DNA of 64,000 bases from Kondoa subrosea (Eukaryota). The DNA lies in contig BCIN01000007.1 in the NCBI GenBank assembly GCA_039545335.1, forward strand, positions 1,232,530 through 1,296,529, given 5' to 3'. Of this stretch, positions 527 to 30,166 are shown piece after piece. Made by a program: the position numbers and the translations under genes. Every line of letters starts with the position of its first letter. The first letter of the stretch is position 1. The notes below the pieces were generated by a model. The model searched no databases, was not told where the DNA came from, and was given only the letters and a program-made list of their open reading frames with translations.

Positions 527-3500
527 ATGAGTGGACATCGCCAAAGAAGAAGCTACCCGTCCCAGGATGGCTTGGATGAAATATCTGGTCAGGCACCTTT
601 AGTAGGCAACAAGGCCAAGGCAGCAACGGGCGGTAGAGCAGGGGACAACTCCTACAGCGCGATCTTTGATTCCTACTCTGCGACTGGCCCAAATAAAGCA
701 ACAGCAGGGGCTAACTCTTCAGCGCTTCCACCTCGAACTACTTCAAATGCTCCGAAACCCTACGGCGGTTCACCTCAACTAGGTTCTCCAACACCTTATG
801 CTGAATCTGGTTTGTTATCACCTAAACTCAATTCATCACCTCGAATGGGAATAGGTGCATCAAATACTTCAAACCCTTATTGGGCTTCCCCAAATTCACC
901 ACAGCAAAGACAAGCCAATGCTTCGGGAGTAGGATTCTTGGAAACAATGCCGTCAAACGATTCTTTTGATGATCTAACAAACGAACATTCTTATGGTCAA
1001 ACCAAGAAACCTCATCCTTGGCAACATCAATCTAGACAATCTTTGACACCTTCAATGTCTGCTTCAAATGTTGGTCAGACTGATGCGAATGGAGAGAAAG
1101 ATTGGAAAACCCTGCAAGCTGCGAACGAGAAGTTGCTTTCGTCGAAGGAAAGATATGATGGACAGTTGCATCCTAGTATTCTGAAGAATCTAGGTCCGGA
1201 AGAGGATGATGACATGCAGTCAGTAGAGACCATACATCGTGATCACTATAAGTCTTGATACGCTTGATCTGTTGACAGCGATCCTGGACCATCTTTACCT
1301 AGAAAAGGCGCCGATCGATTGATTGTGGATACTAAGAAGATAGCTCAAGCATCCGGTTTCTCTACTCGAGGGTTTTGGAACGTCCTTGGTGTCGCTTTTC
1401 TCGCTTTGACTCTACTTTTCCTTTTCGCTGGTTTACCTTTATTGGATTGGGCAACAACCCATTCTTTAGGAATCACTTCCAACAAACAATTTGGATCTAC
1501 TTCAACTAACTCTACTGGTCAAAGAGGTGTGATTGATGGATCTAGCGGAATGATCGACAGCGATACTCCTAAAGGCGCTTATTCCAATAAAGATATTGAT
1601 GGGAATGATATGGTCTTGGTGTTCAGTGACGAGTTCAACTTAGATGGGCGATCATTCTAGTACGTCGCCAGTCTCGTTCTCGACTGAAGAAAGCTGACGA
1701 ATAGCAATAGTCCGGGAGATGATCCATTTTGGGAAGCTATGGATTTCTACTATCATGTCACTAACGATCTGGAAAGTGAGCGACATGCCACACTTGCTTT
1801 GTTACCGTGCTAATTGCCTCGAAAGTGTACAACCCTGATCAAGCCACAACGCAAGGCGGAAATCTCGTGCTGCAGATGAATAGAACCGATCCAGATCTGA
1901 ATGGTAATTTGAACTTCCGTTCGGGCATGCTTCAAAGTTGGAACAAGTTTTGCTTCACTGGCGGAAAGAGTGCGCTTTCTGACGTCCCCAGCGAATCGGG
2001 CTTGATTTCTAATGACCTTTGTGCAGTTGAGGCCAATGTCTCTTTACCTGGTACTTTCGATATTCCTGGGTTCTGGCCTGCTTTGTGGACTATGGGGAAC
2101 CTTGGTAGAGCTGGTTATGCTGCTTCGACAGATGGAACAGTACGTCTGTCTTTCTGCATTCTGTACGTGTAAAGCTAATTTCTTGTCAGTGGCCATACAG
2201 CTACGATAGCTGTGACTGGGGTGAGAAGTTTGAGCAGGAAGAGAGGCATGTTTTTGAAGTGTTGTTTTCGCAGGCGCATTGGCAAATCAAACGGATCCCC
2301 ACGACAACACGTTACCGCTTGCAGCGCACGTGAACGGAGATCCAGTCAATCAAGGCGAATTGTCTTTCTTACCTGGTCAAAAGCTTTCTGCTTGCACGTG
2401 TCCTGGTGAAGAGTCAGTTCAAACGTTCTCGTGTGCTTAAGCTTCGGCTTATGGTGTTCTCGTTCCTGACAGTCATCCTGGTCCGATCGTGAATGGTCGA
2501 TTCAAAGGCAGAGCTGCGCCTGAAATTGATGCAGTGAGTTCTTTTATCTCTCAAAATGGGCTCATACTTAATGTTTTGTAAACAGCTGGAAGCTATGACC
2601 CATCGCGTGACTGGAGGAGAGTCGTCACAAAGGTCGGTCCTCGAGTGACGAGATCGTGCATTCACTTATCAAGGCCTTGTTTACATAGTTTGCAAGTTGC
2701 ACCTTTCGATGCAGCTTATACTGTAAGACCCCGAGTACTGATTGAGAAGCCTGGCGCTCATGTATCATACTAGATCGACAACATTACCAGTGGATATACT
2801 CAATTCTACCAAGAGTCCGGATTTCAAACTGTACTCAATCCGTACCAAGGCGCTGTTTATCAGCAAGCTGTCTCTGGTCTTTCTCGCGTGCCCAACACTG
2901 CCTTCGATGGCGGATGGATGACTGTTGGTTTCGAGTGTAAGTAATTTTTCTCCATATAAAAAAGGGTTGCGCTGAGAAGTTTATAGACACGCCTTCCGAC
3001 CAAGGCGATGGTCAGATCACTTGGTACATGGACGGCAAGCCAACATGGACCGTCAGAGAAGGAGCTGTCGGACCCAACGCGGCGGTCAACATTTCTCAGC
3101 GGTAAGTGAATGATCTATCTGGCAACTCTGATTGCTTATGATTGATTCAGATTGATACCTAACGAGCCTATGTACATCATTATGAATTTTGGAATGTCAC
3201 CAGGCTTCGGTGGTAAGTCAAGAGCCTCTTGAGTTATAGCTCCGTCAGCTCACTTGCCTGCTTAGAGGTCGACCTAGCCAACTTGGTATGTCTCTATCGC
3301 TCACGAGAGGCTCATGTCTGATTCTCAATCCGCTCAGCCGTTTCCTTCGGAGTCAGTAGAATCGATCTTTTGAGGGTTTTTGGCTGATTCCTAGCTTGAT
3401 AGATACAAGATTGATTACGTGCGAGTGTGGCAGAAAGACAGTCAGGTCGATTATGGTTGCGACGGGGCTAAACAGGGCTATCGTATGTCAAGAGCCTCTT

Positions 3501-16500: not shown

Positions 16501-17419
16501 ATCTCGGAATTGGACAAGGTACGCAGCATAGCTCGTTGACAGACTTGACTGATAAGGGACTAACGTCGCGTACAGCCTGAGATAATCAGGATGCTGCCCA
16601 AGATCTTATCTCTTGCCACTGCCTCGCCAGCCGATAAAGCCTTAGTCAAGTCGGTCATCGAGAACATTCTATCTCAGCCTCAGCAGTTCGGCACTGTGTC
16701 GACAAATATACCCCGACCGCGATCTTCCGAGCTACTTAGCCCTGTTGAGTTCTTGATATTGCTGCATAACAATATCAAGGACACTGGCTTGGAACCGACG
16801 AAAGAAGGTAGGGTTTTGCTTCTAGATTGATCTATTGTACTGACGGTATGTGCAGTCATAAGCATGTGTCTGAGCATGCATGACCTTTTCCGGCCGGAAA
16901 TTCTGGCAGCCTTCATGCAGCAAGTGATAGACGAGCCTGTTCTGCCTGCCTTGTTCCTGCGAACAGTACGTTGCATTTAGCGCAACATGTGGCACAGCTG
17001 ATCTTGATATGTCTAACAGGTCATTCAAGCTGCCACTATGCACAAATCACTGCAGCCCTATGTTTCGTCGAATCTCCTATCCCGTCTAATCACGAAGAAA
17101 GTCTGGACAACGCCTAGCTTATGGGAAGGCTTCATTCGGTGCGCAAAGACGACCGCGCCGCATTCTTTTGGCACACTTCTCTCTCTGCCGAAAGATCAGC
17201 TTCGCGAAGTAGTTCAAAAACAACCCAATCTGCAACAACCTCTGCGCGAACACGTCATCCAGAGTGAGTTTGCTTCGCGAAGTATCCTTACCGCTCTTAT
17301 AATATCACGCAGAGTTCGGCTCCAATAAGACACGGTTACACTCCTTACTTGAAGTTCTTGGGGGAGATGAGGGAATAGGGTCGCCTGCAGCGAGTAATGG
17401 TTCTCCTGTACCCTTTTGA
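13511..17419 (+). CDS. Symplekin/Pta1 (cleavage and polyadenylation scaffold), multi-exon
   Basis: N-terminal HEAT-like region (KKAAVQCFASAYPLLF, VRVAATKAVQKIIQTQT, QIRSVEKT). WLNEEW motif. C-terminal symplekin motifs LSPVEFLILLH, LFLRTVIQA and LLSRLITKKVWTTPSLWEGFIRCA. Confidence 0.9.
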
Positions 17420-17517
17420 AGCATAGCACTGTCAATCAAGCTACTACTTTGTATAGCACGAGAACCCAAGACTATAATCTGATTATTTACACTTTTTGAC
17501 AAGCTCTACAAGCTCTT

Positions 17518-20500
17518 TCATATTTTCGCACCTGAGAGACACGTATCAGCGACGCTCTAGCAAGACTTTGTCGACTGACCAATCCCTACACGCAATGTTG
17601 ACGATTCTTCAATCATGTAGTCTCCTGATTCCGGGAAGATCTGGGCAGCTGTACATCGCAAAAGGTTAGTACAGGTACTCGCGAGACAATTCAAGCGTAC
17701 CTCCGCGATACAGATACTCCAACAGGAAAGTTCTGATTTCGTTCACTATACAATTCCATATCCGATTCTTGTACTCGAGCTTCTTCGATTGCACTGGGTT
17801 GTAGCTTGGTATAATATGAGTACAGTGATCTGCGGCGACTTCCAGCGCTTTTACTCGAGCATGCCATTTCTCGCCATGCCCGAGCGTTTGAGTTCCGCCG
17901 CTTTCTATTCGTAATATTCGCTGCAGTACAGGCTTCTCCAGTCCACGAAGCTGTTCAATGACGTAAGCTATGCAGGAAATATAAGAGGGAAAGCACTCAC
18001 GTCGCATCGCTGTCGATACCCTAATCGCAGAGTCATCATATAAAAGCCTATTCCAGGTTGAGCGCCGCATCGGATATCGAGACATGATGACTCACCGTCC
18101 AATCCTTTCAGCTTATTTAGTAGAATCTGATCTCCCTCTTCAACATACGGCACATGTTGTCTTCGTATGCTCAAAAAAACAATGATCCGCGGTAAAACCA
18201 ATATTCTTCTCGTCAGAGCAGTGAAAGAATGAGGTGCTCCTATACCACTGCCGAAATGATGAAAGAAGGAGAACATATCGACCTGGGCGCATTTTGAGCT
18301 ACTCAAGCCGCCAAATTTCTTGGATCGCAACTCACTCGTGGTAATTTCAGCGGCTTTCCGTTCCCATCTTGCAGAGATAGACTTCTCGTCGGCCCGTTAT
18401 CGACCATAAGCTTGACTCTTCTTCCATCATGGACTTGAGTTGTTGTTCTTGATAGGATACTTTCCAAATTATTTGAACGCATTCGTATAAGACTATCATG
18501 CGGATCTTCCTCATCGTGTGAATGTACCACTCGCAATATAGCAGGTTCTTCCAGTTCGTTGATATCCCCTAGATTAGGTGAATCCTTTTCTGTTAATTCT
18601 GCTGGATCGTCCTCTTTCGGGTGATAATGCTTAAAGACTTCATTCAAGAACAATCGATGATCTGCGTCGAATCTATTGAAAAGTGATAGTAGTGATAGTC
18701 AGGGACTTATTTTCCGTTACGAAATCTGTGCATCTTGACTCACTGATCTTCCAAGCTTTTAGCCCATGTCCAGAAACAAAGGAAAGCGGCCAAAACAACA
18801 CTGAAAACCAAAGTGAACCAAGCGCCGTGCGGTACTTTTTGCAAAGAACTGGAGAAGAAGAGACCATCGATGAAACCAAAGAAGATGAAGAAGGCTAAAG
18901 GGATAAGGAACTGATAACCCTTGACCAAGTACATGACCAGACTGAGGAGTACTGTGGTGAGGAAGAGTGTACCAGAGACACAAAGGCCGTAGCTGTTAAA
19001 AGCAGGTGAGGACGATTAGGGATTGTTGGGATATCACACATACGCATTAGTTAGCGCTTGATCTGTTCCGTAAAAACTTGAGTTGCCGGTTCTACCAAAT
19101 CCTCCAGCGACGCAAAGTGTACCAGCCATGAGACCGAAATTGATAACAGGCATGTAGATTTGCTGCAAGCAAGTAGTTAAGCGCAGTCTTATAGCAGTAA
19201 TAGAAGTGCTAGACTTACAGCTCGTTTGCTTTCGCTTGTATGAATGATTTCAATTGGAGCTGCACGTAACAAATGATCAAAGAAAGTCGTCTGTCACGAG
19301 CTGGAACAACTAACGGAAACTTCGCAACCCGATCAGATGTTGGATCAGGGAGAAAGTAGCAGTAATACTATTTTTCGCTTTTCGTCAGCTTTGCTCTTCT
19401 TGAACACTTGAGTTATCAATACATACATGCCTTGACTAGCTACAACAGTAGCAGCCATACTGATGATCCAAACGACCCAAAACAATGCATTCCCTTTGGT
19501 TTGCGGGATGGATTCGTAGAAAATGTTGCCAACGATAGTATCGCTTTCCAAGGCGATCAAAGCCGCTCCTTGGCCCAAATAATTGAACGTTAGTGCCGGA
19601 TAAACTAGAGCTCCGAATCCTAGTCTAATAGATGATTTGTCAAATTGACCCAAACTATTTGACTTTTAGATGAGCACCTCCATGCGCAAGACGGAGTAGA
19701 GTAAGATTTACCTAGCAAATAAGGATTCAACTCCAGTAACGCATAGTAATACACCTGCCAGATGAGAGATCGATTCATCCCTAGTGAACCATAAAACTGC
19801 TCTACTGGGATCGAAAGCTCTGAAGATCTGTGGATAAAGGGTGATGTTGTAAATTCCAATACCGAAAAGGAACAGCAACCAAAGAACAATGACGGGAGTG
19901 AAGATGAAGCTAAGTCGAGCGACACCAAGTCTTTGGACTGAGAAAAGAACAGCTAAGATGGCGATAGCAATACCCTTGATTTCTGGAATTGATAAATTGA
20001 GGCGAACATTCAGACCACCAACTGCTGATACTACGGAGACAGCTGCGAGTGGTTGGATCATCAGAAGTCGTTCGAAAGACTGATCAATGCAATTTACCTG
20101 GCGCAAGCAGACCATCTGCTATCATGAGTGCTGAAGCAAAGAGAGTGATGCCAGTACTGAGAGAACAAGTCAGCGCATGAACTATTGTATGGATCACAAA
20201 CCTACATTGTGACTTTTGCCCAATGCCTCGAAATGTATGATCTGCAAGGTTTAGTCAATGAAGCTGTTCAACCATAACACAAAGCAGCCCACTGATTTTG
20301 AGGGAACAGAATAGTATACAGCGCAACTGGACCACCTCTGTACCGAGATTCAAAGGGAGAAAGGCTGCACAGGTGAAAGACTAACTCTCCAGATGAAGTT
20401 CCAAATTGCAACGCTATGAGTGCGGTCTTGACGATACCGACCAATAACAGAGCCCAGATGATAGCACTGATAGCACCCACTGATACCAAGTGATGAGCGA

Positions 20501-21024
20501 TATTCCTTGATGCCCAATAAGATTTTGCTTGACTCACAAACATCTTCATCTGGCGGTTGAATTCTTTCGTCCAAGGTCGTAGGGAAGATAGCATTCAGCA
20601 CATAAATAGGCGATGTTCTACAAGTCAACTGAGGATTGAGTTTCCGACAATGTAGTGACACTGCCACTAACCCTGTGCGGAATCGATCAGATCTGCATAG
20701 CAAGGCACATCTGAAGACTTACCGATATCTCCTGCAATACGCACAGATGCATGCATCAGTACTACCTCATTCAGGCCGACGCCTAACCTACCAAAGATCA
20801 AACCTGTTCATGCATAACATGTCAGTTTTAAAAAGGCTTATTTCCCCACAAAATGTATGCTGACCACAAGCTGTGAGGGCAGTGATGAAGAGCGAGTGCC
20901 GTTCATCTGATGACATCCGCCCGCTCTTTTTATGGCTACTGGTCGACGTTCTCTGCCAAGGCTGTATCGTCCAGGAGCTCGCGACCGGTGACCTGATTAT
21001 TTTAGCTTCAACTGCTTCAACCAT
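17518..21024 (-). CDS. KUP/HAK/KT potassium transporter, multi-exon
   Basis: Spliced GLIFGDIGTSPIYVLN. Also GGPVALYT, AVSVVSAVGGL, QRLGVARLSFIFTP, GVLLCVTGVESLFA, VYPALTFNYLGQGA, ATVVASQ and KVPHGAWF. Start codon uncertain. Confidence 0.92.
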
Positions 21025-21330
21025 TTGCAGGGTGAAAAGACAGCTGCGATTGTAAAGAGATAGTCAAGTACAGACAAGCAACAGCCCGATGTTGAAAAAG
21101 CAAAGCAAGATAACAGCAAAATGTGTCGAAAACGTGTTGCTTCCAAGTGAACGTAACAACCTCTGCCATGGCTTCCTTGTCTTATGCCTACGCACGACCT
21201 GCTTTGCTCACAATCTTGGTCTCTCTGTAATCGACGCTTGCTTAACCGTTCCTGCAGTGCTTTTTGTTCTTTTGTTGGTATTTTCGCGTTTCATGTCCGA
21301 TTTCTGCAAGGATGATCATCTTCAACGAGC

Positions 21331-23001
21331 ATGCCCTCTACACTTTTGAGCGTCTTTCTCGCTTTCCTAGCAATAATTGGAACTTTGATACTCCGCTATT
21401 GGTCAACCTACAAGCGCTTTCGACATGGATTATCTCAAATGCAATTAATGGCCAGCGATGCAGATGCTTATTACCAAGATCATGAATCTCATCCGTTCTT
21501 TCATTTACCTATGCCTATCATGCCATCCCAAACTTTCATTGTATCACCTAGCTTGATCAAGAAGTATTACGCTACACCTACTTTGGATTATATTCATATC
21601 AAAAGAGAATTGGATATTTCAGTTTTCAGAATGCCTAGAGATTGTTTACCTACTTCTGGAACAAGAAGTCAAACGATGACTATGATTGAACATATGTTTC
21701 ATTCAGAATTAGCGCCAGTGAGATTGGAGGAAGTGATGCATCGATTCACCGAGGAAATCTATAAACATGTTAGAGTTCTGCAAGAGGAAGTAGGTGATCA
21801 AGGGAAAGAGATACCAATCAATCAAAGGTTTTACGAAATCATGCTGTTGTCAGCTGTGACTTCTTTCTTTGGCGTGAGTTCATCCAACAATCATAGTCCC
21901 TTCCTCAGCTGACTGATCTTTGTCAGACCAACTTTCCTTCACCTCTTGTCCTGCCTCATCTTCGTCATATGGCAGCACACCTAGCAGCAGCTGTAGTTCC
22001 AGGTCAATTACCTTGGCCATTATCTAGTCTAGCTACCTATCTACTAGGAACAGAAGGTCAAGACGCTTTTGAACGAGTGGCCATTATATGCGAAGATTGG
22101 TTGAACGAATTTGGAACTTCTCATGCTTCGGAATTGGTCATTAGAACAGAAGCAATGGCTAGAGCTAGTGGATGGACTAAGAGAGAAATTGGTATCATGA
22201 TGGGAATGCTTATGGTCACTCTGGTCGGTGCGTTTTTTGCCTTCCTCCTTTCGCGTAGTACAGAATCTGACGATACATGATTCAATTATAGCCAATTCAT
22301 CGGACGCAGCAGGGTGGATTCTTCTTACTCTTCTTCAATCACCAGTCCTATTACAAACGATTCAATCCGAAATATCTTCCTTACCTTCGTCAGAAGAAAA
22401 CCCTCTTCGACCCTATTTATCTGCTTCTAACCTCTCACACTATTGTCCTTACCTAACTTCTTCAATTCAAGAAACACTTCGACTCTTCACTTCAGTCTTA
22501 TCCGCTCGAATAGCATTACAAGATACCACTCTCACATCCTCTAATTCAACCGTTTTCATTCCCAAAAACACTCGAGTCATTGTACCTACTCGAGCAATGC
22601 ACGTTGATAAAACAATATGGGGAGAAGATGCTGCTTCTTGGAAAGGTGATCGTTTCTACGGTGAAGAAGGGAAAAAGAAGATAAGGGAAATAGCTCCTTG
22701 GGGTGGAGGAAGTTCAGCTTGCTCTGGTAGACATTTCGCCAATGTGGAATTGGCTTCGATTGCTGTTATTTTCTTGTCGGAATTGGATTTTCAACTAGAG
22801 GGAATGAAGTGTATAGGAACTGATGGGAAAGAAGTCGAAAGTCAATACTTTGGGATCATCGATTTAGATGGGAAGAAGCATGAGGGGAAATGGCCTGGTG
22901 CAAGAACGGATCCTCAAGCTGTCCAGTCTGGTGTTTTCAGAGCGGGTGCACAAATGGTCATACGAATCAAAAAGAGAAGTGAATCTGGACTGAAACTATG
23001 A
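21331..23001 (+). CDS. Cytochrome P450 (CYP7/CYP8-like sequence features), three exons
   Basis: N-terminal TM anchor, I-helix ANSSDAAGW, ExxR motif (ETLR), PERF-like WKGDRF, heme motif WGGGSSACSGRHFA. Confidence 0.88.
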
Positions 23002-23034
23002 AGAGATAAATGCATGGTATTACAAACAGGTAGA

Positions 23035-23900
23035 CTAGAAATTGAGCCACTTTGCCCCGACTATCTCAGCGATGCGTTTCTGACATGTGGTCAATGCAAT
23101 ATCAGCAGGCAGAGGAGCCGTCATCCAACCGTTCAGAAGGTTTCTTGCTTGCTCCACGTTCAACGCTATAATGGCTGCATCATTGGTGATGTTGCCATAG
23201 TCCTTCCAAGAAATGCATAAGCATTGATCAGTTTTCACTGTGCTATAGGTAGAACGCACCGGATACACTTCAGACGGTAATCTACCATCGAGGAAAGGAA
23301 CCTCCTTGTAAGGATTACAGGTTCCATCGCCCTTCCTGCGATTCTCATCCTGAACTTCAAGATCAGCCCAGATCAGCATGTGCGAGGCATGACTTTCAGA
23401 TACCAGTCGACGGTGTACATGCTGCATGTCTTTCTGCAAGGTGGCCAATTCTCCCTGCAGCTCGTCTACAGCTGCTTCCAAGGTTTCAACTTTTGTTTCC
23501 AAGGTTTCGACTTTCGCGGTGAGGGAAGCAGTTGCGGCATTGACGGCAGCATCAATAACAGCCTGCAAGTCAACTGCAGCTTGATTTGCGTTAGCTGTCC
23601 CATTGTTAACTCGTTAAAGCTTGTACCATAGTGGATGCATCAACGTTGAACTCACCCTGACTAAGGACAGCATTTTCATAAAGGTGAACAGCGACCAAAT
23701 CCTGATCCCCGAATTGTCCAACTACAGCAAGTCTCGATTATGAGCATTTGTGAACAATGACATGGAAATGGTAACGTATTTAACATTACAGTATGACGGT
23801 ATTGGATTGCTTGCAACACGTCGTCAAAAGTTGGTGGACAAGCTGGACGCGGGGGACGAGGAAGATTTCCAACCTGGACTACTTGTTCGATTTGTATCAT
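23035..23900 (-). CDS. Coiled-coil protein with a Mug135-like C-terminal domain, multi-exon
   Basis: Pro-rich N-terminus (LPRPPRPACPPTFDDVLQAIQY), heptad coiled coil, and C-terminal NRRKGDGTCNPYKEVPFLDGRLP...IIALNVEQARNLLNGW...RIAEIVG. Family assignment is from recall, not a search. Confidence 0.55.
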
Positions 23901-24270
23901 TGTCACGTTGTTGCAAAACAACAAAAGCGATAGCGGAAAGTCAACTTACGAGACAAAGGCAGAAGGAGAAGCTGGTGGTCGCAGTGAAACCTCTTTTGTA
24001 ACAACACTTCGTTGCAAATAAGATATATAATGTTTTTCGTTACGTACAGATGATAATGACAAATGCTAAAAATACTAAATCACAAAAAGGATCAGTTCCG
24101 CTATGCTATCGTTAGTCGTTAAAATAGACTCTTATAGGACAAGAATGCTGGACAATGTTTTTGCTGTACATATAGAATGCGAATGCGAATGATGATATAA
24201 CGACTATTTGCTGCTTGCTGCTGCTGCTGCGGTTGGATGATGTTGCATGAATAGCTTCTTCTTCTTCTTC

Positions 24271-25468
24271 TTATACAGTTAACTTCTCCGTTGATGAACT
24301 CGAGAAAGCTTCCTCTGATGCCAGCATCAAATCGTATTCTCTTGCTCTACCGGACAAAGCATTTGACCAATTAAGGGAAACACCAACGAGAACCAAAGCG
24401 ACTGAAAAGGTAAGAACAGCTGCATTGAAAGCTGGAGGCCATTCGGAGTGTTCTCCAGTTACCCATCCAGCGAAAAGTGAACCAATACTGATGGAATATC
24501 AGTTGGATTATTTGAGAAGAGGAAGAGCCTGAGCTAACGCTGGAGAGGTACACGACACAGCAACGAGAGCCCGCTTGTCTTTCGGTACAAATGGAATGCG
24601 ACCCATTTTTAGTTCGGTGTAAGCAGTAAAGTTGGGCAAGGAGATGCACATCTACATATACAGAGTGAGTTCAAGAACCCAGTATAGAGAGGTGTGGACT
24701 GCTTACCAGAGAAGTACCAGCCATCAAAGGTAAAAACGACAAGCGAATGTGAGACAGAGTTGCAGTCTGAACCAAATAAGCATTGATAGCGTATCCAAGT
24801 CCTGAATCAAGACTCTATCAGCTAGATCGTAGCTCTCATCTTTGTCAGACTGACCGATTAACAATGCTCCTGAAATGGAAACAGCCTTTAAAGCCAATCC
24901 TCTTTTTCTGTTAACGCTTGAAACGCAAGACCCAAAACCAATAGCAGCAGCAACGCAACCAATGAGACCTAATCCAGCCAAGACCGATCCGCTGAGATCA
25001 AAGAAAAGCGCGTCATTAAGAATGTCTCTTCCAAATTTCTCAGTTAGAGCTCACACTATCAAAGTCGTCTTCTTGTGAGTATAATGACCAGTAATAGCCT
25101 GACTACATCCGAAGCCCAGAATTAATTTCCCTCTGCACGAGTTCGATCAGCTAAGAAGCCCAGACAAAGGGGGAGAGAAAATGAATGACAACTCACAAGC
25201 AAGCAGCTAAGTAATACATTGGCACATGCCATGAAGTCCTATCTTTTGAAGCACGGTAAAGGAGTGCCAATTTCCTCTGTTCGGCGCAAAGGAGTTGTTT
25301 GGGTTGATGAGAGTCTTTAGAAAGAGATGGCAAGCCAACAAAGGTTTCTTCTGAATCAGTAGAGATATCTGCTACATGTTCTTCTTCTTCTGATGTAGTA
25401 CTTGAGAGGCTGCAAGTAGATTGGGATAGAACGTTGGCGCTGGTTGAAGCTACTCTTGAAATAGTCAT
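24271..25468 (-). CDS. Multi-pass membrane protein, possibly a divergent MFS-like protein, multi-exon
   Basis: Hydrophobic exons joined by plausible introns: SVLAGLGLIGCVAAAIGFG; TATLSHIRLSFLPLMAGTSL; MCISLPNFTAYTELKMGRIPFVPKDKRALV; SIGSLFAGWVTGEHSEWPPAFNAAVLTFSVALVLVGVSL...KLTV*. Confidence 0.55.
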
Positions 25469-25950
25469 TGTTTCGATGTGTCGATGGACGGAATGGGGGA
25501 TGATGGTGAGTAAAGGACAGTGCAGAAGTTGGATCAGTAATTGAGAATGGATTCGAATGATAGCAAAGCGGTCAAAGGGAAACGTTTCGCTTAGAATCTG
25601 AGCTTTGTTGTGAGCCCCTGTTCAGAGCTTGGCGTTATCCATAAAGATGGTGAGGGCAAGAGCAAGTCCCAAGAGACGCTTGAGTTAGATGCTTGGCCCT
25701 TGTTGTGTTGAAGAAGTCAGCACACCAGCTGGTTGAGATCGGAATACCTGCAAAAACAGATGGACATCAATGCCAAGGTAGATTTTACTCGCCTGCGATG
25801 TCTCAGCGAGTCGACATGGAGCACTGTAAAGACCACTGTCTTCCAATGCACAAGGTATAATACTATGCTGATGCCGTGAAGGTACAAAACGATTGCTTGC
25901 GAAATAACTTCCGACCCCCCGCTCGCTGATCCCTTGCTCCGATCTGCAGA

Positions 25951-27901
<1,951 letters not shown>

Positions 27902-28526
27902 TGTTTTGAATTTGCTTGAGAAGGTAGAAGAGAAGCAGGGCAGTGACAAGCGTTAAGTAGGCTAGAGAAAGGAGTGTAGAGGTGCAAGTGTGCGTTTGGG
28001 AGATAAGAGTTGGAAGCAAAGGACAAAGTGCTCGCAACACAAAAGCAAGACCCTTGTGTGCTATGACCCTGTTTTGGGGGCAAAGAGTGAAAGAAAGGAA
28101 GACTTTGCCTTTTGGCAGCCGATAAGTAGCGAGTTACTGATAAGACAGAGGGGTTGAAGAAGAGCAAGCAAAGAGCGAGAGAAGACTTTATAGCCGTGTT
28201 TGCATTTGCATTTGTTTCACAGCGCGAACATCCGCGAATCAGACGAGGTGCGAGCGCAATACATTACACGCGTCCGTTTCGTGCGCACGGCAATAGCACG
28301 ACGACAGTGATGCATGAAAGATAGTAGAATAGCGAGCTGGCAAGATTTGACGCGTTCTCACTCTCTGTCGGATTTTCCACATGCTGCTCTTTCTCTTGCT
28401 TTCTCGTACTGCTCGTCTTGTTTCTTCCTAAGTCGTGTATCCAGCGACGAATTGACTGGTGACCTGAGTGGTGTATAGCGATCAAGCTCATGTGTCTCTC
28501 TCTTATCTCGTTTGCATGATTCCGTT

Positions 28527-30166
28527 ATGACTGAAGTACGCAAGAAGTACGATGCTTCTACACCATTTGAAGATCTAGTCGAATATTCTTTACCTGTCTT
28601 GCCTGTTTTGCAGACACAAATTGTCAAACTCGATGAGAAGCGGAAGTCGAAATTGCGATTTTGGACTTGGCACAAGAATTTGACTGTGCTAGGGAGAGCT
28701 ACACTGTTGATGGCTTTAGAAATCGTACGTTTGATCCTTGTTGCGAACTGTATACACTCAGTGGTAGCACAGGCAGCGAACGGGATCATTTGGATAGCTT
28801 CACTGATCACTTTCCTGCCTCATCGAGAAAAGCGCAATGTACTATCGTTGGCGCTTGTAGCTTGGACGCTTGGCTTGAGGCATGCTTTGGGTGAGTTCTG
28901 CTCGTCGGCGAAGGAAAGAGGCTAACTCGAGGGCAGATGCTGATCAGTACGCTTCGATCAGCTGCTATTGAAGTACGCTGACAAATGAAGCAGTATCTGC
29001 GCTATAGACAAGTATGTTTTGTTCTGCTGCCGGCGCGACTGGTGCTGATGTGCAACGGAATCTACAGCTCAATTCGGCGATTGATAAGTTTAGGGTAAGC
29101 GTCCCCATGTATCAGTAAGACGTAATTTGATAGGCGGACAGACAAGTTCCCGTCACAGTGGGATCGTATTTTAGTCTTGGTCATTCAACGGTAGTCATCT
29201 GCGCAACTCTAGCTATCATCATCAGCGCTTCAGTAGCCAACAAGCTAGACAAATTCCAAAACATTGGCGGCTATATAGGAGTATCAATCTCTTCCGCTTT
29301 CCTTCTTCTCGTAGCAGCAATAAACAGCGTCATTCTCTATCGAACTATTCAAGCTCGCAAACGGTTCAAAGATCAAGCTCTGTCACCTGAAGAAATGGTT
29401 ACAGCTCAAGAAGAAATAGCGACCAATACCTGTCTTTCTCGATTAGCCAAACCACTCTTCAAAATGATTGACGCGCCTTGGAAACTTTACCCTCTAGGAC
29501 TAGTCTTTGGTCTAGGTTTCGATACAGCAAGCTCTGTTCTACTTTTATCTCTGTCAGCAATAGCAAGCGCTTCGCTTTCGGATCATCCTGGAGAACTCAT
29601 ACTCTTGCCGCTCCTATTCACTGCAGGCATGACAGCCATCGATTCTTTAGATGGTTGTATTATGACCCTGGCCTACTGTAAAGGAGCGGATGCGATCAAA
29701 GAAGAGGAGAAGGGCTGGAAGAGATTGAAGTTCTACAAAGATGTGGAGGGAGATGGAGATGGAGATGAAGAGAGGGCTCAACTAATGAAGAATAAAATGG
29801 CGACTTTCAGCGACCTGAGTATAGTAAGCACTTCGTATTCTGATCTAGCTGAGCTAATGTCAGGAAGCAGGTGTTGACTATCTTATCAATCGCTGTTGCA
29901 TTTGCTGTTTCATTCATTCAGCTCATGTCTGTTGCTGCGGAACAGTTGAATGGAACAGAGCGACCGGGATTAGGTAAGGCTTGCTTTTCGATTACTTATT
30001 GATGCTAAGCTGTTTTGTAGAGGGGAGATGGTGGAGATTTTGGGTGGGAATAAACGATGGAGGTTGGTTAGGTATTGTGGTTGTATGTGTTATGGCATTA
30101 GTGATAATAGGTGCATCGGTAATATGGTATATCAAGAAACGAAAGCAGAAGAGAGAAGAACAATAG
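28527..30166 (+). CDS. NIC1: High-affinity nickel/cobalt permease (NiCoT, Nic1-like), multi-exon
   Basis: Spliced signature LGLRHALDADHICAIDN, plus GSYFSLGHSTVV, LYPLGLVFGLGFDTAS and LPLLFTAGMTAIDSLDG. Confidence 0.93.

Follow-up and report, generated by a model that had tools for sequence, protein, structure and literature searches.

Can an exon consist of one base? The question is raised by a gene on the minus strand of the window, by which we mean the whole 64-kb stretch of DNA that was analysed (G+C content of 42-47%). Near the start of this gene, which is predicted to code for a K+ transporter of the HAK/KUP family, the DNA encoding the conserved motif GDIGTSP is broken up by introns, and a lone G at position 20672 lies between two of them, here called A and B. 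Either this G is kept in the mRNA, or it is lost with the sequence around it, or part of its surroundings is translated. On the evidence set out below, we consider it quite likely that G 20672 forms a one-nucleotide exon, spliced in constitutively between two U2-type introns.

The HAK/KUP gene

A homology-guided model that includes G 20672 joins 21 exons into a coding sequence of 2313 nt, with 770 codons and no internal stops. From the first to the last, the exons measure 52, 12, 9, 1, 80, 94, 45, 36, 59, 331, 228, 53, 41, 119, 249, 337, 187, 47, 250, 69 and 14 nt, and the 20 introns between them, every one GT-AG, have lengths of 48-71 nt (Table 1). Four of these introns are packed into 22 coding bases at the DNA encoding GDIGTSP, and two of the four abut the lone G. 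An earlier note on this DNA had placed exons of 12, 9 and 1 nt here, and its coordinates match the minus strand exactly (20803-20792, 20731-20723 and 20672, with the following exon beginning at 20617).

The assignment to the family comes from the large exons. Three of them are matched by the Pfam profile K_trans (PF02705), with E values of 6.8e-27, 2.2e-17 and 1.3e-20 (94.5, 63.1 and 73.8 bits against a cut-off of 24.8), in such a way that profile positions 112-436 of 454 are spanned, and the fourth (ORF 17968-18396) is matched by K_trans_C (PF22776) with 32.5 bits against a cut-off of 24.8 (E = 8.7e-08). A protein search with the 109 residues of exon 10 found 35 proteins, the closest named ones being basidiomycete K+ transporters with 53-58% identity (Cryptococcus sp., Mixia osmundae, Stygiomarasmius and Rhodosporidiobolus), and the nearest overall being three JGI fragments (P0001-P0003) with 65-71% identity, the best of which, at 71%, is on a short contig. 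Four named basidiomycete homologues have 759-806 residues, to be compared with the 770 codons of the window model. The gene is thus predicted from its sequence to be an intact, intron-rich HAK/KUP K+ transporter of a basidiomycete-like fungus that has no close annotated relative among the proteins searched.

Two further details of the model were considered. An alternative in-frame ATG is found at 21024-21022 on the minus strand; the 36 codons from there to the ATG at 20916 contain no stop, and a start at the upstream ATG would give an N-terminus nearer in size to those of the fungal homologues, which have 33-56 residues ahead of the motif. An intron of 31 nt after exon 7 was also tried and is ruled out by the frame in the homologue P0001, so that exon 8 ends at 20206, before GTAGGT.

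Table 1. Positions of the modelled exons and introns around the lone G, and of very short exons in two other genes of the window
Feature	Position	Strand	Description
HAK/KUP exon 1	20865..20916	-	52 nt, start codon at 20916; after splicing, the translation can be aligned to homologous N-termini
HAK/KUP intron 1	20804..20864	-	61 nt, GTCAGC...AACAG; phase 1, in the Gly codon four residues ahead of GDIG
HAK/KUP exon 2	20792..20803	-	predicted 12-nt micro-exon GTTTGATCTTTG, after aacag and before gtaggt
HAK/KUP intron 2	20732..20791	-	60 nt, GTAGGT...TTGCAG
HAK/KUP exon 3	20723..20731	-	predicted 9-nt micro-exon GAGATATCG, between ttgcag and gtaagt; ends in the G that supplies base 1 of the split Gly codon
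HAK/KUP intron A	20673..20722	-	50 nt, GTAAGT...CACAG; branch-like motif CTGAT 14 nt from the 3' end
HAK/KUP exon 4	20672	-	predicted single-G exon, context ccgcacag/G/gttagt; base 2 of the Gly codon
HAK/KUP intron B	20618..20671	-	54 nt, GTTAGT...TGTAG; its one consensus branch-like motif, TTGAC, is 7 nt from the 3' end
HAK/KUP exon 5	20538..20617	-	80 nt, AACATCGCCT at 20617 after cttgtag; A is base 3 of the Gly codon, then ACA TCG CCT (TSP)
Rest of HAK/KUP gene	17518..20537	-	exons 6-21 and 16 further introns (48-71 nt); stop codon at 17520-17518
NiCoT micro-exon	28937-28946	+	10 nt; signature RHA-x-DADH...AIDN
NiCoT micro-exon	28994-29011	+	18 nt; signature RHA-x-DADH...AIDN
NiCoT micro-exon	29068-29094	+	27 nt; signature RHA-x-DADH...AIDN
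MAP kinase exon	27430-27428	-	3 nt, TCA, between introns of 60 and 55 nt; needed for the Fus3 spacing

Frame and motif around the lone G

In the model the split Gly codon is composed of the G at 20723, the G at 20672 and the A at 20617, and the joined exons read GDIGTSP. The pattern G-D-[ILV]-G-T-S-P is uninterrupted in the window gene only if G 20672 is spliced in, and only the joining of exon 3, the G and exon 5 gives an N-terminal translation that fits those of the homologues. When the G is left out, the frame is shifted and a stop is reached 8 codons past the junction. Among 30 full-length homologues, 26 have the motif uninterrupted, and the other four have no match to the pattern in their first 260 residues.

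To see what else could be spliced here, all paths from the start of exon 3 into exon 5 were enumerated with GT/GC-AG borders, introns of 38-130 nt, up to four introns and the acceptor of exon 3 fixed. Of the resulting 52 paths, 13 are stop-free and in frame, and GDIGTSP is restored by just one of these, that with G 20672, the others giving substitutions or insertions of 1-18 residues. The earlier note had named other splice sites yielding GDIGTSP without the G as what would speak against the exon, and none of the 13 paths is of this kind.

The splice models were also scored with a profile HMM of 26 homologues, covering their N-terminal 130 residues. The model with the single-G exon was the best one (96.8 bits), followed by a path with a different 1-nt exon, which gives Val (91.6 bits), by the insertion of one Lys (90.1 bits), by a 13-nt exon (86.5 bits) and by the retention of intron B (78.7 bits), and a simple 105-nt intron, with its frameshift, scored 4.3 bits.

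The flanking introns as separate units

Splice weight matrices were made from 22 other introns of the window (18 from the HAK/KUP gene and four from a nickel/cobalt transporter gene, NiCoT), all taken from homology-guided models, so that the scores are partly circular. With this proviso, the donor of intron A (10.9 bits) lies above those of all 22 training introns (5.7-10.2 bits) and its acceptor (5.9 bits) is mid-range (3.5-9.4 bits in the training set), and in intron B the donor is also mid-range (7.2 bits) and the acceptor is the third lowest (3.9 bits). The distance from the branch-like motif to the 3' splice site, 7 nt in intron B, compares with 11-36 nt in the other introns. Intron B is the weaker of the two, with acceptor and branch spacing at the weak end. 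In length both A and B fall inside the 46-71 nt range of the training introns, and a single intron of 101-105 nt would exceed all 22.

Chance occurrence of the internal splice signals was estimated with 200,000 intron-like 105-mers simulated by a first-order Markov model trained on the 22 other introns, and an AG-N-GT site was counted if neither half was shorter than 44 nt and the splice scores equalled or exceeded those of the weakest training intron. Such a site was found in 0.017% of the simulated sequences, and in 0.0035% (3.5e-5) with G as the middle base. The internal AG-G-GT layout is more than chance.

The single-G exon is, in short, the best-supported model on frame, motif, profile, splice signals, intron lengths and coding potential, as well as on the intron positions of homologues. 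The proposal of the earlier note that the Gly codon is put together as G, G and A from three exons came out as the best model on every computational test, and at the level of RNA it is a prediction: as no RNA run is listed with this DNA, we infer the splicing in of G 20672, and the order of splicing discussed below, from what can be read directly, that is, from sequence, frame, motif, signal scores and homologue intron positions.

Intron positions in homologous loci

A metagenome scan based on an alignment of the exon yielded fungal HAK genes at 70 loci, of which 49 are informative for the motif, the other 21 showing no motif on the available DNA. At 40 of the 49 the motif is encoded in one piece. 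Seven loci (L010, L013, L048, L053, L054, L060 and L061) have a phase-0 intron, always with a GTCAGC donor, just after the Thr codon of GDIGT; this is a third intron position within the motif. In these same seven loci the intron is preceded by an exon of 26 nt (GC ATT ATC TAC ... GGC ACT), and this exon by a phase-1 intron in the Gly codon before I-I-Y (cag/GC ATT ATC TAC), which is the place of intron 1 of the window gene. Apparent splits of the motif in L048, L067, L053 and L054 turned out to be false matches further downstream, the real split of that clade being the phase-0 intron after Thr.

The two remaining informative loci each have a single intron in the same Gly codon that is divided in the window. 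In L036 it is in phase 1, at the position of intron A (ATCG/gtgcgg...tcaag/GAACATCG), and in L021 it is in phase 2, at the position of intron B (ATCGG/gtgtgt...gacag/AACATCG). Introns A and B are found together at none of the 49 informative loci, and 47 of them have no intron in this codon. Counting the window and the 49 informative loci, at least five intron positions are occupied within about 30 coding bases around the motif.

A rough FastTree tree was built on 440 query-anchored columns; of the 78 rows it kept the 73 with 200 or more aligned residues and dropped five shorter ones. The nearest neighbours of the window gene in this tree are L036 and Mixia, and L021 is nested among agaric-like loci that do not have the intron. 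Because of these placements, position A may be common by descent to the window and L036, and position B in L021 looks like a parallel event.

It is conceivable, though in our estimate rather unlikely, that the one-base exon arose as the union of two discordant positions that are found singly elsewhere (phase 1 in L036 and phase 2 in L021), the DNA of GDIGTSP being a hot spot for intron gain in basidiomycete HAK genes. If this were true, losing one or the other of the flanking introns would shift the intron position by exactly one nucleotide with no stwintron stage, and would offer a second route to one-nucleotide intron sliding.

Two observations on the single-intron loci are added here. L036, the GC-rich locus closest to the window gene in the tree, has at 660-760 an 18-nt micro-exon, TCATCTACGGCGACATCG, between two phase-1 introns, and the motif is on a micro-exon there too. 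The 9-mer GTTGACTTG, which includes the branch-like TTGAC, is found near the 3' end both of intron B (20622-20630, minus strand) and of the L021 intron (approximately 3399-3407); it could be due to chance or to a constraint on the branch site, and the tree puts L021 not close to the window gene.

Alternative readings of the block

The first alternative is that only intron A is removed and intron B stays in the mRNA, giving an insertion of 18 residues between GDIG and TSP. The 54 nt of intron B make 18 codons with no in-frame stop, so its retention would keep the frame, and the frame of exon 5 is open upstream through it (ORF 20350-20718); by simple arithmetic, around 42% of random 18-codon stretches are free of stops. 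Against this, the profile HMM gives the retained form 18 bits less than the single-G model. Nothing separates G, T and S in those full-length homologues that match the motif pattern (26 of 30), and at each of the 47 metagenome loci whose Gly codon is free of introns the Thr codon follows it directly. Intron B has exactly the same position as the intron of L021, a length typical of introns, GTTAGT at its start and TAG at its end. When intron B was read in frame and scored for coding versus intron character, it obtained -5.8 bits, a value as low as that of only 7 of 752 true 19-codon exon windows (0.9%), and 39% of 66 in-frame readings of other introns scored as high or higher. This 54-nt stretch resembles an intron and not coding sequence, and we consider its retention unlikely. 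It is probably what an automatic annotator would call.

A second alternative places the fault in the DNA or in the gene: one of the exon edges would lack a base, because of an assembly error or a true frameshift mutation in a dying gene, the intron would be a single one of about 105 nt, and the internal site would be a coincidence. The sequence was compared with Logan contigs (around 19 Mb in total) from two DNA runs, assembled separately, which come from one sample, probably the source of the window, and are therefore not independent of it. The contigs of both runs, with word depths of 142 and 53, are identical to the window over 12.5 kb, from 17400 to 29900, with no other letters and no gaps, which argues against an assembler artefact. 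In addition, the other 20 exons are all open and family-like, with 770 codons in total, the 105-nt intron would be the longest of 23, and the coincidence has the probability of 3.5e-5 obtained in the simulation. A missing base is in our view very unlikely.

Even less probable, by a little, is a single non-standard intron of 101 nt, for which exon 3 would extend 4 nt further, to 20719, and a GTCTTC donor at 20718 would be joined to the TGTAG acceptor, to give GDIGKTSP with an extra Lys. This path is among the 13 stop-free ones and its profile score is only 6.7 bits under that of the single-G model. However, the GTCTTC donor scores -1.0 bits, against a minimum of 5.7 in the 22 training introns, and it lies 4 nt downstream of the top-scoring GTAAGT, which would have to be ignored; the intron would be longer than all 22 others (maximum of 71 nt), no homologue has an insertion inside the motif, and the internal AG-G-GTTAGT would again be left to chance (3.5e-5).

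Finally, a stwintron, in which one intron interrupts the splice signal of the other and the whole block is removed with the G, is scarcely credible: although two GT-AG units abut inside a conserved peptide stretch, as in the fungal cases (PMC5587772), the removal of all 105 nt shifts the frame to a stop 8 codons on (4.3 bits), and neither A nor B splits the donor, branch or acceptor of the other, each having complete signals of its own.

Proposed order of intron removal

If G 20672 is an exon, introns A and B would each be recognised as an ordinary short intron, with the splice sites paired across the intron. The two would very probably be removed in succession and not together, because the U1 binding site on the donor of B overlaps the 3' AG of A. 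Either order of removal would lead to the same product, ...ATCG-G-AACATCG..., read as Gly-Thr-Ser, and a skipped G would yield a frameshifted mRNA with an early stop. G is the base that suits all three demands on this position together, as the +1 base after an acceptor, the -1 base before a donor and the middle base of GGA. This proposal of intron definition and stepwise removal follows, by analogy, the reasoning given for Arabidopsis APC11 in PMC4674806.

Other very short exons in the window

The earlier note had counted two independent 1-nt exons in the 64 kb. No second 1-nt exon was confirmed in the window, where our scans gave only two other AG-N-GT sites between intron-like stretches. One of them, G 29094 on the plus strand, is the last base of an ordinary 27-nt exon of the NiCoT gene, and the signature of that family is recovered by a model whose exons measure 10, 18 and 27 nt. 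The other, A 24664 on the plus strand (acag/A/gtgagt), lies between two 45-nt intron-like stretches (24619-24720); the four surrounding ORFs have no Pfam match and there is no clear coding frame nearby on either strand. With a mean of 0.6 such sites per window in shuffled sequence, this site is probably due to chance.

The earlier note had suggested a pattern search of the genome for such exons; in our scans of the window the counts were within the expectation from shuffles. The tandem-intron counts per spacing matched the shuffled sequences (at a spacing of 1, two sites for a mean of 1.1; in the other scan, two for a mean of 0.6), so that a genome-style scan alone gives no statistical support. 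Crude intron candidates showed only a mild enrichment over shuffles at 48-60 nt. The pattern AGNGTDAGT has 11 matches in the window for 5.68 expected, a number reached in 2 of 100 shuffles, and this count is uninformative because most of the matches are ordinary exon ends.

Very short exons of more than one base are predicted in two neighbouring genes. The NiCoT gene (28760-29877, plus strand; Pfam NicO, E = 3.7e-37) carries its family signature on three micro-exons (Table 1) separated by introns of 46-56 nt. Among the 12 named homologues listed, the annotations of six (P0039, P0040, P0044, P0045, P0053 and P0059) start inside or just after the signature, and in another homologue, P0042, an intron has seemingly been kept at the signature, which suggests that homologues of this transporter are widely mis-annotated through micro-exons.

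In a Fus3-like MAP kinase gene (27373-27684, minus strand), the exons flanking the predicted 3-nt exon TCA align to residues 22-47 and 51-71 of yeast Fus3, and the gap in this alignment takes exactly the two residues given by the model with TCA. A 13-nt exon at 27633-27621 of the same strand, after an intron ending in AAG, is probable from the glycine-loop motif of kinases.

The very short exons of the three modelled genes thus measure 12, 9 and 1 nt (HAK), 10, 18 and 27 nt (NiCoT) and 13 and 3 nt (MAP kinase). As models, they support that such exons are common in this organism, and the earlier suggestion that ultra-short exons are routine in its splicing is borne out in this softer form, for exons of 1-27 nt in three genes.

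Comparison with known systems

One-base exons are rare but have already been published, in Fusarium, Coprinopsis and Arabidopsis, and the window case would add another. The closest resemblance is with the Fusarium P450 CYP621A, for which PMC12940212 describes a 1-nt exon that is conserved in 24 genes and confirmed by transcripts (SRA reads); its base is the central G of a Gly codon, within AGGGT. Common to that system, as described there, and to the window are a fungal nuclear gene, a central Gly G in a conserved motif flanked as AG/G/GT, an apparent intron of around twice the usual length and an exon phase that is broken when the base is omitted. The differences are that the Fusarium case is a P450 of ascomycetes with 24 genes and SRA reads, whereas that of the window is a basidiomycete-like K+ transporter predicted in one genome from DNA alone. 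A further difference is that in the window the 1-nt exon follows exons of 12 and 9 nt, so that one Gly codon is spread over three exons.

In the basidiomycete Coprinopsis cinerea, an annotation from long reads is reported to contain 13, 57 and 27 exons with lengths of 1, 2 and 3 nt, respectively, and leaving micro-exons out often creates premature stops (PMC12230235). From this account, Coprinopsis is rich in micro-exons as is the window, with the difference that its 1-nt exons are based on transcripts and that of the window on DNA. A literature search, too loose to show absence, found no link of micro-exons with HAK genes among the papers listed.

According to PMC4674806, Arabidopsis APC11 has a constitutive 1-nt exon, A333, between GT-AG introns, proven by mutagenesis and cDNA, and its authors argue for intron definition with a stepwise, recursive-like removal of both introns. 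In that account APC11 is unlike the window in being a plant gene, in the base (A), in its long introns (a block of 422 nt) and in the experimental proof.

If real, the window case would extend one-base exons to a second fungal gene family, as a clean example that falls within the best-conserved motif of a K+ transporter. It would also be a trap for annotation, as standard gene callers would either translate the 54 bases of intron B into 18 extra residues or cut the gene short, and a similar trap seems to be present in the neighbouring NiCoT family. For the biology of splicing it would provide a test case for the removal of two abutting short introns whose splice-site binding sites overlap.

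The fungal stwintrons and the related one-nucleotide shift of introns, described in PMC5587772 as adjacent or overlapping GT-AG units in a conserved peptide stretch, resemble the present locus in that the canonical introns of homologues differ in position by exactly one nucleotide, as do those of L036 and L021. By the description given there, a stwintron leaves nothing in the mRNA, whereas the G of the window must stay, and the locus falls outside that definition. Together with L036 and L021, the predicted one-base exon bears on the origin of introns placed one nucleotide apart, for which it could represent an intermediate between two such positions.
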